Shown piece after piece: positions 32,601 to 35,600 of a stretch of DNA of 47,972 nucleotides. Position 1 is the first letter of the stretch, and every line of letters starts with the position of its first letter. Made by a program: the position numbers. This DNA is from a virus (taxonomy: Duplodnaviria > Heunggongvirae > Uroviricota > Caudoviricetes), in the IMG/VR virus record IMGVR_UViG_2531839374_000006; one strand, written 5' to 3'.

Positions 32601-35600
32601 ACCTGTTCGATGGTGTCTGTATGGTTCCATACCCTCTTATTGCATATGCGAGACTCATTCTTACCTCCCATCTTACCGTTATCACCGTGTAGTGACACTG
32701 TTACATCCATGTATAAATGCTTTGATACTATGGCTATACCATTAAAATAAGTTTACCGGAAGACTTTGATCAACTACTTTTCACACCAGATACACAAATA
32801 ATGTGAAACACAACATAGAAATTGTCAAAACCGCCGGGTGGCGGGTGCGTTGAGGATGCCTGACACATCAGAGGTGGCGGGAGATTACTCCCCCACCTGG
32901 TCTCTTACTCCTCAGGTTCGTAGACTGTGAAGACAGCGACCTCCGTCTGGCCGGTTCGGATTCGTACCTCGCAGAGGTCTTTCCTCGTTACCAGTGCCGT
33001 CACTATGACGGTTAAACAGATGACGATCAGGGCGATTAACATCGCCTTTTGCTGCTTCATAGCCTGCTTCTCCTTGCCTTTCGGCACGTAAGAGGCTAAC
33101 CTACGTTTGTGAAGCATAGATTGGGCCTCAGATTAATGTTAAGCGTCTTGCAGGACGCGTAATGTTAACTGGGGCTTTTCTCTATCTGCCTTTTGGTGTT
33201 CATGCCTGAGGCAGATAGCCTCAAGCACCCATTATGATTTTAACCAAAGTCTTTATATCTATAAAGAGGCACAATATTACTCGATATATCATCATGTGTG
33301 CGCCTTATTCCAAACATTTTGGAAACAAAGCGTTCCCTCACTCCCGACATATCCAGTATCTGCTTCCAAGAAGATATATCCAGCAATTCAACTGCACAGG
33401 AAAGTAAGCGAGGTTTTTCCTCAGGGATTAACTCATCCCCCATCTCTCCTTTAATCGTCCCTCTTTTATTTAGATGGATAAATCCCGTTCTCATTTGTTG
33501 TGGCGTAATCAGCCCCAAAACCGTAGCACGATAAATACACATGCGAAGACTGATTTTCCATCGTTCTTTGAAATTAATTAGTGCATTCCAGTCAAGATGC
33601 GATCCTCGCATTTTAGGAAATTCATTAACGAACGAAACTCTAGGTACAAGGAATGCGCTCGAAAAATAATCCGCATGATGTTCTGTAATTTTATCCCCTG
33701 TTATAATCCCTTCATGCAAAACAAGATGCCCCAGTTCATGACCGAGATCTGAGCGAAATCGACACACACTCTTTTTCGCGGAATTTCTAATTATCAATGG
33801 GCGTTTACTATTAATAGTAAACGCATCAATACGATCATCCACGCCAGATACATGAGCAACAACAACCCCAATACTTTCCACGAAATTAACCATTGAAGAT
33901 ATCGGTCCCAGCCCCAACCCCCAATACCTTCTACAGGCCTCGGCAATTCTTTCAATATCTTCATCGGAGTTCAAAGGTAATCCGGACGTATCAGGAAAGT
34001 TCAATTCTGGAAGAACTATTTCTGTTTCCAAACACTTTACAAACTGCTCCAAAATTTCAGCTCGAGCCAGAATACTATTAGTTAAGGACTGCGTCCTTGA
34101 TCTCTTGCTTCTGAAATGGCAGTTCTCGCTGTCTAATGGTGATTTCCTTCCAGTGAAGAAAAACGACTCTTTAACATCCAGATAATCTGCAAGAGCTGTC
34201 AACATCTGAGATGAAGGGGGATAACCACGCTCTAACTTGTTTATAAATTGCCGAGTCACCCCCAAAGCAGTAGCAAGCTCTTCGCCCGTAACCCCTTTAG
34301 CCTGACGAGCTAATTTTAAGCAGTCACCACGATAATTACCTATAGAATCAAATAGTTCCATATTTATCACTATCTGCTTTTTTCGCATTCTTAACACGCC
34401 GCTGCAAATTCAGCGGTGGTGTTTCCACGGCCTCTGGCAATACGTCAGTATTAGCTGCTTGTACTGGAGCATGGACTTTAGACACCAATTCGTATCTACT
34501 CACTACATTATTTGATGAATCAAAACCTATCAGGGCTAAAAGCCACGTTGGAGGTTCGATATCTTCATCTTTTTTATTTGCAGATGGTAATTTTTCAGCC
34601 AGAACACGCCATGTAACATCATGTTCAAAATTAACATCATCTTCAAAAAGAGATAACTGACGACACTCAACATCATTTTTACATAAGCGATGTTTCTTTT
34701 TTGGTGAATCCAGTTTATCGGTCACAAACTGTAACGGCACCCTGTTCAGGGTAAACACAAAATTCAGAGGTGTTGAAAGAATCGCCACTCCTTTGAGTTT
34801 TTTATGATTTTTTACAAGAAAGTTTTTTATCCATCCATAGGCCCTACATCCATTAATCCAGTTATCATCATACTCATGGCGATGGAACCATAATTCGCCA
34901 AGTACGTTAGCAAATTGCTGAAGAAGATTGATAACAGATTTTTCATCCAAACAAGGATTGATTTCAAAACACGGTTGGAGATTCTGTTCAGACGGCATAA
35001 GGTATCCCTCTCTCTTAAAACTCCGCTCATCTTTACGCAAAATTTTATTTTTGTAAACCTAATCTTTGGGGTATTTCACGAATTCGTCAACCAGTTGAAC
35101 GAACTTTAACCACAATACATATTTATCTACATTGATATGAGTATCGCTAACACTATTGTGGGCATTCAGCTAAATAGCTGCGCTTAATACCGCTACACTT
35201 TTGCCAGTCCATGTTTGCCTCCGGGGAATGGGCTGACGGTTTCCATAAAATGGCGAACTTTTTTCAACAGTTGCCACATTGAGCGGCACTGATGATTACG
35301 CGTTATTGTGTCGTGAAGTGCCTGCCATAGCCGTTCAACATGATTCACCCATGGCGAGTAAACCGGCTGATAAATGCCCCTGAACTTCGGGTTCTCCTTC
35401 AGCCAGCTCTGTGTTTCCCGGCTTTTGTGGATAATGTAGTTGTCCACGATCAGCGTGATGGTTTTCGCCCGACGGTATGTCGCTTTAAGCCGCTTCAGCA
35501 GGCTGATGAACAGCGCCGAACTTTTGCTGTTGCCGCCCACATAGCTGACTTTACCTGTCCCGCTGTGCAGCGCTCCGGCCAGATAATATTTTTCATTCTG

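Follow-up and report, generated by a model that had tools for sequence, protein, structure and literature searches.

Two described systems are the natural points of reference for the locus discussed here. The hok mRNA of plasmid R1 passes from a closed to an open structure, as summarised in PMC9841398. The hokW-sokW locus of prophage Sp5 has been studied experimentally (Takada et al. 2021, PMC8621323). HokW is toxic, and the locus does no harm as long as sokW is driven by its own promoter. Mutation of the sokW -10 restores toxicity, and sokW in trans rescues. The antitoxin activity of sokW is partly dependent on RNase III and Hfq. The sokW RNA vanishes after mitomycin C in a RecA-dependent manner, HokW then appears in the inner membrane, and deletion of hokW-sokW halves the release of Sp5 phage (all PMC8621323). 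For both R1 and hokW-sokW it has been shown that Sok is transcribed and unstable and that it neutralises Hok by way of RNase III cleavage of the duplex. Here we consider a related locus in a stretch of 47,972 nucleotides from a virus of the Caudoviricetes (IMG/VR record IMGVR_UViG_2531839374_000006), which we call the window. We argue that positions 32827-33265, read on the minus strand, are almost certainly a full-length, intact hok/mok/sok type I toxin-antitoxin module of the hokD/hokW lineage. By analogy with its characterised relatives it is probably also phenotypically active. Our confidence on this second point is lower because some structurally intact chromosomal hok loci gave no killing in earlier tests. 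The module is already known as a kind, and nearly so as a sequence. It is textbook hok/mok/sok.

The extent of the locus was examined by megablast with 32700-33300 as the query. There is one sharply bounded conserved block of 390 nt, 33230..32841. This core is found in 79 phage records and in 4721 of the 5426 complete E. coli genomes, where it occupies a median of 2 places per genome and a maximum of 9. It is 95.1% identical to hokW/mokW/sokW of phages 933W and VT2-Sakai (Sp5), and the GenBank records of these phages label the matching stretch mokW, hokW and 'SokW antisense RNA' (AF125520, AP000422). The Rfam family RF01794 ('sok') matches 33230..33055 on the minus strand across its full model (1-157), with 120.1 bits against a gathering score of 59 (E=6e-27). 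The consensus of RF01794 ends in AUG near the hok start codon, and the match is on the hok-mRNA strand. It certifies the leader of the hok mRNA, which is the Sok target, and not the Sok transcript itself. Strand calls made from RF01794 need to be inverted when Sok is annotated. The sequence-only reading of this DNA had described a Hok-type locus at 32827-33240. The locus is real, every element described was found where it had been placed, and the Rfam and megablast matches exclude chance.

The toxin gene hok lies at 33060..32905 on the minus strand and encodes 51 amino acids, MKQQKAMLIALIVICLTVIVTALVTRKDLCEVRIRTGQTEVAVFTVYEPEE, behind a Shine-Dalgarno sequence (SD) AGGAG at 33074-33070. The protein matches Pfam HOK_GEF (PF01848) with E=2.6e-22 and 78.6 bits, against a cut-off of 22. 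It is identical to K-12 HokD at 50 of 51 positions (98%; tblastn E=1.7e-29), the sole change being Ala46->Val, so the earlier view of this frame as essentially HokD/RelF was right. As expected of a Hok/Gef toxin, the hydrophobic stretch LIALIVICLTVIVTALV and Cys30 are conserved across our table of loci. The reading had also seen a mok-like leader frame in the in-frame extension up to 33117. This is a reading frame of 70 amino acids (32905..33117, minus strand) that starts at ATG 33117, overlaps hok in the same frame and shares its stop codon. Its position and frame match the annotated mokW of 933W, exactly so for the start, and mokC of K-12. The mok SD, GAGG, is 8 nt upstream of the mok ATG.

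The regulatory elements of the hok mRNA can be placed on the minus strand, where mRNA position p is window coordinate 33231-p. The predicted full-length transcript runs from +1 at G33230 to the T-run (32827..33230, ~404 nt). As a 404-nt RNA it has a minimum free energy (MFE) of -163.1 kcal/mol with z=-7.1 against shuffles, and the full-length folds gave z=-7.9 and -7.1. The translational activator element (tac), GGGUGCUUGAGG, occupies 33219..33230 (nt 1-12). It pairs with the fold-back inhibitory element (fbi) in the predicted full-length RNA and with ucb in the trimmed one. A 5' hairpin of the leader follows at 33182..33218 (nt 13-49; helix 2, with 8 pairs, 2 of them compensatory, and 99.3% paired). 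The ucb/anti-SD box AAGCCCC is at 33171..33177 (nt 54-60), following the definitions in PMC9841398. The Sok-target hairpin at 33124..33175 (nt 56-107, helices 3 and 4) includes the mok SD at 33129-33126. Near the other end of the transcript there is a GC-rich stem-loop at 32873..32897 (nt 334-358; helix 13, with 7 pairs, 2 compensatory, and 96% paired). This is likely the 3' end of the processed, active mRNA, and by analogy with R1 (PMC9841398) it probably acts as an exonuclease block. The fbi, CCUCAACGCACCC, is at 32843..32855 (nt 376-388). The transcript would end at a terminator-like hairpin, CCGCC-ACCC-GGCGG and then UUUU, which can be read directly from the sequence at 32827..32844. The sequence-only reading had already pointed to this hairpin and its T-run, and other loci bear different terminators at the same place.

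These elements are predicted to form a switch. In the full-length RNA, tac and fbi form a duplex of 12 bp with one bulged C (-19.4 kcal/mol), and this duplex is in both the MFE and the centroid structure. Folding of the mRNA for tac/fbi pairing had been suggested from the sequence, and the RNA does fold closed in this way. In the same fold the mok SD (GAGG, nt 102-105) is paired with AGCCCC of ucb (nt 55-60), and is buried. When the last 46 nt are removed, the MFE structure of the 358-nt RNA switches to a tac/ucb stem in which GGG(U)GCUU pairs with AAGCCCC, and the SD is freed from ucb. The thermodynamic predictions contain both sides of a closed-to-open switch, from tac/fbi plus ucb/SD to tac/ucb. 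The predicted switch corresponds to the R1 transition summarised in PMC9841398.

A predicted fold is more convincing when it is kept by selection, and here the comparative evidence is strong. A scan of one genome per species gave 47 related loci, to which 933W, two plasmid loci and K-12 hokB were added. The 34 loci with both transcript ends intact were kept and aligned from +1 to fbi (alignment A2). They come from Escherichia, Shigella, Kluyvera, Photorhabdus, Pantoea, Citrobacter and one metagenome-assembled genome. The IncF plasmid hok (L006), meant as an outgroup of the R1 type, was left out as its 5' part is replaced by ISKpn8. K-12 hokC (L008) has IS186 directly downstream and is unusable for fbi. 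The decayed copies were a broken tac in L013, the relBE-type loss of the leader in L014 and L034, a disrupted 3' end in L025 and the loss of the 5' part in L047. RNAalifold on A2 gives 68 consensus pairs, 17 of which have double compensatory changes. Paired cells amount to 98.4%, against 39-47% when the partners are slid by 1-3 columns. Cells changed on both sides number 103, against ~30 in shuffles, and the covariation score was reached by 0 of 500 shuffles.

The tac/fbi duplex itself covaries. At pair 4:402, 21 loci have UA, 11 have CG and 1 has UG. Complementarity is kept in 34/34 loci by compensatory variants such as GGGCGCUUGAGA with UCUCAAGCGCCC, GGGUGCUUGAAG with CUUCAUAGCACCC and GGGUGCCUGAGA with UCUCAUGGCACCC, and the duplexes of the individual sequences have 11-12 bp. 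Only the six outer pairs were counted on the MAFFT alignment. The distal half was not, because the bulge shifts Photorhabdus, which has no bulged base, one column out of register. Those pairs were checked sequence by sequence after extracting the 12-nt 5' end and the 14-nt 3' box of each locus. RNAduplex on the whole 5' flank against the whole 3' flank gave long, uninformative global duplexes with weak z-scores. The Sok-target hairpin covaries as well (61:101, AU 24/GC 10; 65:96, GC 21/AU 12; 64:97, UA 28/CG 3). The box GCCUC at 33092..33096 (minus strand, nt 135-139) is complementary to the mok SD region GAGGC and lies inside the invariant AGCCUCUUAC (nt 134-143), which adjoins the Sok -10 in agreement with PMC9841398. 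The block CCUCUUAC around it (A2 columns 140-146) is invariant or nearly so in 34/34 loci, and its partner in helix 5 is GUAAGAG at the hok stop codon. By analogy with PMC9841398 we infer that GCCUC is dcb, and in that paper a Sok-promoter mutation falls in dcb.

A small hairpin, CAG-UCUACGAAC-CUG (32913..32927, minus strand), is found within the toxin gene. It presents the Tyr47 codon UAC (32922-32920) and a following G, which together make the TACG motif of TadA-type A-to-I editing. Tyr47 UAC, and then GAA, lie in a CUACGAA loop closed by CAG/CUG. We take this loop to have the sequence of the tRNA-Arg(ACG) anticodon loop. The stem (helix 12) covaries over the 34 loci, with CG 18/UA 15 at one pair and GC 21/AU 10 at another. 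The Ala46->Val change of the window falls in the 5' flank of this hairpin. Recoding of Tyr to Cys at this position by A-to-I editing has been described for hokC/D/E, and the TACG motif has been reported for hokB/C/D/E (bioRxiv 10.1101/2025.08.07.668861).

The sequence-only reading expected a Sok-like RNA opposite the leader, at about 33080-33200 on the plus strand, and could not place it. Homology to the experimentally tested sokW now does. The predicted Sok is a 71-nt RNA at 33109..33179 on the plus strand, with coordinates transferred from the sokW misc_RNA of AF125520 across one 1-nt indel. Its promoter, at 33074..33102 on the plus strand, has -35 TTGCCT (33074-33079), a 17-nt spacer and -10 TAACCT (33097-33102). 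After the -10 there is a 6-nt gap and then G33109, and the -35 overlaps the hok SD on the other strand. The hexamers and their spacing are identical to those of 933W/Sp5 sokW. A -35 of TTGCCT or TTGACC with a TAAYCT-type -10 is at the same position in 33 of the 34 loci. In its predicted fold (-29.2 kcal/mol, z=-5.2) Sok begins with a single-stranded 5' tail of 14 nt, continues into one long hairpin and ends in UUUU, and the same shape is predicted in 933W, an IncY P1-like plasmid and a Pantoea plasmid. In the annotation of K-12, sokC and sokB have their 5' ends 9-11 nt into mokC and mokB, and the predicted Sok of the window has the same geometry. Judged by its sequence, Sok would be a cis-encoded antisense RNA, with a promoter in the mok/hok SD region and complementarity to the mok translation start. 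The 'pro-less' primer YO-421 of PMC8621323 replaces exactly this -10 (AGGTTA in the hok sense), and the promoter-less construct turned toxic. The northern probe YO-592 of the same study spans the first 30 nt of the predicted Sok. The earlier reading had held that a copy with no antisense promoter and no conserved fold-back elements would be a decayed one. Here both are present and conserved. The 19 differences between the window and 933W leave tac, ucb, the mok SD and AUG, the Sok -10 and -35, dcb, the hok SD and fbi untouched.

The boundaries of the cassette seem to coincide with the ends of its predicted transcript. A candidate hok promoter is at 33237..33265 on the minus strand, with -35 TTTATA (33265-33260), a 17-nt spacer and -10 TAAAAT (33242-33237). 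The generic scan found 9/12 consensus matches for it, and it ends 6 nt before G33230. This -10 shares bases with the TAA that ends the upstream RmrA-like gene. Most of the 34 intact loci have a TAnAAT-like hexamer that ends 6 nt before GGG(T/C)GC, though their upstream contexts are unrelated. Homology starts exactly at 33230 in ~4,250 genomes, whatever lies upstream. This alignment evidence argues that 33230 is the true 5' end of the hok mRNA, and transcription probably starts at G33230. At the other end homology stops at ~32841, the last base of fbi. Each context supplies its own terminator there (CCGCC/GGCGG in the window, CCCGC/GCGGG in K-12, GCTCC/GGAGC in IncY), and the upstream promoter is likewise divergent between contexts. 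The hok cassette seems to recombine as a unit delimited by the ends of its own transcript.

Our analysis covers sequence identity, the presence and integrity of all the elements, both predicted RNA conformations and covariation. The transcription starts, processing, dependence on RNase III and Hfq, toxicity and biological role proposed below would follow from homology with R1 and Sp5. A weak promoter overlapping the stop codon of the upstream gene would start a ~404-nt transcript at G33230. In the full-length RNA fbi would pair with tac while ucb sequesters the mok SD, and the RNA would be stable, untranslatable and unbound by Sok. Slow 3' trimming to the stem-loop at 32897-32873 would remove fbi, which would let tac pair with ucb and free the mok SD. 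Translation of mok would then drive coupled translation of Hok. Sok would be a constitutive, unstable 71-nt antisense RNA. It would anneal to the exposed leader across the mok SD and AUG and so form a duplex for RNase III to cleave. If Sok were lost, Hok would enter the inner membrane and kill or permeabilise the cell. The trigger could be induction, as in the loss of sokW in Sp5, or loss of the element, as in the classical case.

The absence of relBE deserves separate treatment, as the toxin is nearly the same as one found behind relE. In the Qin prophage of K-12, relB, relE and hokD are contiguous. Queries with K-12 RelB and RelE against the whole window returned only noise (best tblastn E=0.087 and 0.27). 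The sequence-only reading had characterised the locus as one without relBE. This stands as a statement about tblastn matches in the window, but the emphasis was misplaced, since a full-length module free of relBE is what one commonly finds. Taken by itself, the 156-nt leader (33230-33075) reaches at least 80% coverage in 4257 of the 5426 E. coli genomes, with 1 genome at 100%, although this count may partly stem from paralogous hok leaders. Because the leader is so widespread, the window is the ordinary full-length state and K-12 relBE-hokD is the derived, 5'-truncated exception. Alignment of the K-12 hokD locus with the window begins no earlier than the hok SD (~33074), after relE. One can imagine that the window also has a 5'-truncated or decayed hokD like that of Qin, free of Sok control. 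Its toxin is near-identical to K-12 HokD and PGAP names all such genes 'hokD', yet nothing of the 170-nt leader is missing from the window: tac, ucb, the mok SD and AUG and the Sok promoter are all in place, as is fbi. The alignment already refutes this reading, and we regard it as scarcely credible. An operon with hokD directly 3' of relB-relE, lacking mok and sok, is not what the window contains. A truncated hokD of the relBE type was rejected on the aligned complete leader and the lack of any RelB or RelE match in the window.

Several points must be set against an intact, working module. A generic scan found no terminator; the T-run is short, with 4 T after the stem, which is below the T-run rule. 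The Sok promoter escaped the generic promoter scan, and its -10, TAACCT, agrees with the consensus at just 3 of 6 positions. A promoter search over 33080-33240 on the plus strand had been suggested in the sequence-only reading. As a generic scan it missed, and it was homology that identified TTGCCT-17-TAACCT at 33074-33102 as identical to sokW. We do not regard consensus scanning as a valid test here, because it missed both a -10 with 3 of 6 matches and a terminator with 4 T, and homology to the mutated sokW promoter was used instead. The 5' tail of Sok differs from SokW at 4 positions; the mRNA changes alike by definition, but the kinetics could differ. Position 47 of Hok encodes Tyr rather than Cys, so by analogy with the edited genes Hok may need TadA editing to be fully toxic. 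Intact chromosomal hokA, hokB and hokC gave no post-segregational killing in earlier work (bioRxiv 10.1101/2025.08.07.668861). Intact anatomy is no guarantee of a killing phenotype, because these intact loci failed such tests. This opens the way to a hok that is structurally preserved but biologically silent, transcribed and controlled by Sok without ever killing, a neutral passenger of the prophage like hokA/B/C. The module is very common (median 2 per E. coli genome, up to 8-9), which fits selfish or neutral spread, and Tyr47 needs editing to yield a second cysteine. Even so, phenotypes could be measured for hokW-sokW, at 95% identity, within the prophage that naturally carries it. The RNA switch is still under purifying selection, as the compensatory changes across six genera show, and decayed copies (L013, L014, L034, L025) look different. 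We consider a silent copy unlikely.

A further possibility is that hok has no promoter of its own and is expressed only distally, from the RmrT/RmrA-like operon or by read-through from PR. In that case tac would not be 5'-terminal and the switch would be inoperative. The upstream gene does end 10 nt before +1, the candidate -35/-10 lie inside its last codons, and hok is co-oriented with the early-right operon. Against this, the TAnAAT-like hexamer keeps a constant 6-nt distance in most of the 34 loci in spite of their unrelated upstream contexts, and the start of homology at exactly 33230 in ~4,250 genomes argues for a true 5' end there. Read-through may still add to expression, but as the only source it is improbable. 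We also entertain a more speculative idea, to which we give little credence. Antiterminated read-through on induction, from PR or from rmrTA as a Rosmer-like toxin-antitoxin defence pair, could silence the convergent Sok promoter by transcriptional interference, or RmrTA and hok/sok could form a two-layer abortive-infection island. If interference were true it would provide a mechanism for the unexplained RecA-dependent loss of sokW in Sp5, and would time the release of Hok to assist lysis. The reading we prefer remains the intact hok/mok/sok module with a candidate promoter of its own and a predicted Sok.

Read on the minus strand, the window is a lambdoid prophage of mosaic composition. It contains a cI-like repressor (40927-41316, plus strand), a YdaS/YdaT-like pair (40873-40141), an O-like replication protein (39526-40050) and a DnaB-like helicase (37903-39333). 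The hok module (33265-32827, minus strand) comes next, and beyond it are a DUF1367 protein (30905-31504) and the Q antiterminator (30076-30738). Four clustered tRNA genes (29561-29868, minus strand) lie just downstream of Q and upstream of the lysis genes, and the lysis, head and tail genes are downstream of the tRNAs. The cassette is carried as a moron. It occupies the nin region, with the replication genes on one side and Q on the other, and is co-oriented with the early-right operon. Its hok gene follows the direction of PR transcription and Sok is convergent to PR. Among the complete E. coli genomes and the phage records, matches cover at most 66% of 30000-37000, and this particular mosaic is therefore missing from both collections.

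Directly upstream of hok there are two genes with matches to the candidate anti-phage system Rosmer (RmrTA). The RmrT-like gene is at 34348-35040 on the minus strand (PADLOC RmrT, 1.7e-18). The RmrA-like gene is at 33240-34397 on the same strand (PADLOC RmrA, 6.4e-107) and has HTH_3 and Peptidase_M78/ImmA-like domains. There is no general link between hok and an RmrA-like gene: the rmrA-hok junction occurs in 31 of the 5426 complete E. coli genomes. The prophage also has another type I toxin-antitoxin locus. The full-length small RNA RalA, the antitoxin of the RalR/RalA system of the Rac prophage, is at 46989-47167 on the minus strand (Rfam 203.9 bits; gathering score 170). An Exc-like excisionase (47263-47559) and a RecE-like exonuclease (43583-45418) are encoded nearby. 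An IpaH-family type III effector of 587 amino acids with NEL E3 ubiquitin ligase and LRR_TTSS domains is encoded at 779-2542 on the plus strand. The protein scores 563 bits with NCBIfam IpaH_Shig against a cut-off of 550, and its gene adjoins the tail-fibre genes of the prophage, which suggests a Shigella or enteroinvasive E. coli host. Finally, isrK RNA (42124-42200) and C4 antisense RNA (42225-42312) lie inside the 5' end of a Rha/Ash-domain reading frame (42073-42924, plus strand). This arrangement looks like a C4/anti-repressor immunity module of the P1/P7 and Gifsy type, in a lambdoid prophage. The hok module adds to the accessory load of this IpaH-carrying prophage, as a type I toxin-antitoxin locus beside ralR/ralA, together with the Rosmer-like system.

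The locus carries little weight as a discovery. Descriptions of the hok/sok family, its prophage hokW/hokD branch and the RNA switch go back decades, and experiments have already characterised a locus of 95% identity. Its practical value is in annotation. PGAP labels such toxin genes uniformly hokD, whether or not the locus is full-length, and RefSeq E. coli genomes generally have nothing annotated under the match to the 156-nt leader, which holds the mok start and the sok gene. The gene that PGAP would name 'hokD' here is part of a complete and probably active toxin-antitoxin module, unlike its K-12 namesake. The mok frame, the Sok RNA and the regulatory RNA elements can be annotated to the nucleotide level.

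It remains to compare the locus with the systems already described. R1 hok/sok (parB) is the mechanistic prototype. It shares the architecture, the named RNA elements and the two-state fold, which is a prediction in the window, but its sequence is distant: HokW, which is 5 residues away from the Hok of the window, is 44% identical to R1 Hok. The R1 locus is plasmid-borne, and it is for R1 that post-segregational killing has been shown. The hokD (relF) of K-12 Qin is also in a lambdoid prophage, its toxin agrees at 50/51 positions and its DNA is ~96-97% identical from the hok SD to fbi. However, K-12 has relE where the window, itself free of relBE, has the full leader (170 nt), and K-12 is without tac, ucb, the mok start and both the Sok target and the Sok promoter. 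The Rac-type phages (Rac-SA53, KU052037; phage Rac, MN652886) have hok and mok annotated near Q, DUF1367 and rem genes, and the window carries ralA as Rac does. Their locus is ~87% identical over the matched stretches and the neighbouring morons differ. The closest match is hokW-mokW-sokW of 933W/Sp5, which is likewise in a lambdoid prophage and has the same in-frame mok, tac, ucb, dcb, fbi, Sok promoter hexamers, 71-nt Sok and Sok fold. Of the 19 nucleotide differences, four fall within or beside the Sok 5' tail and mok codons 2-5. The C-terminus of Hok is FTVYEPEE in the window and FVDYESEK in HokW, and in the window a terminator hairpin of its own follows fbi directly. The two also differ in position: the 933W locus is at the right end, beyond the gene of a very large protein (L0134), while that of the window is in the nin region downstream of the RmrTA-like pair.

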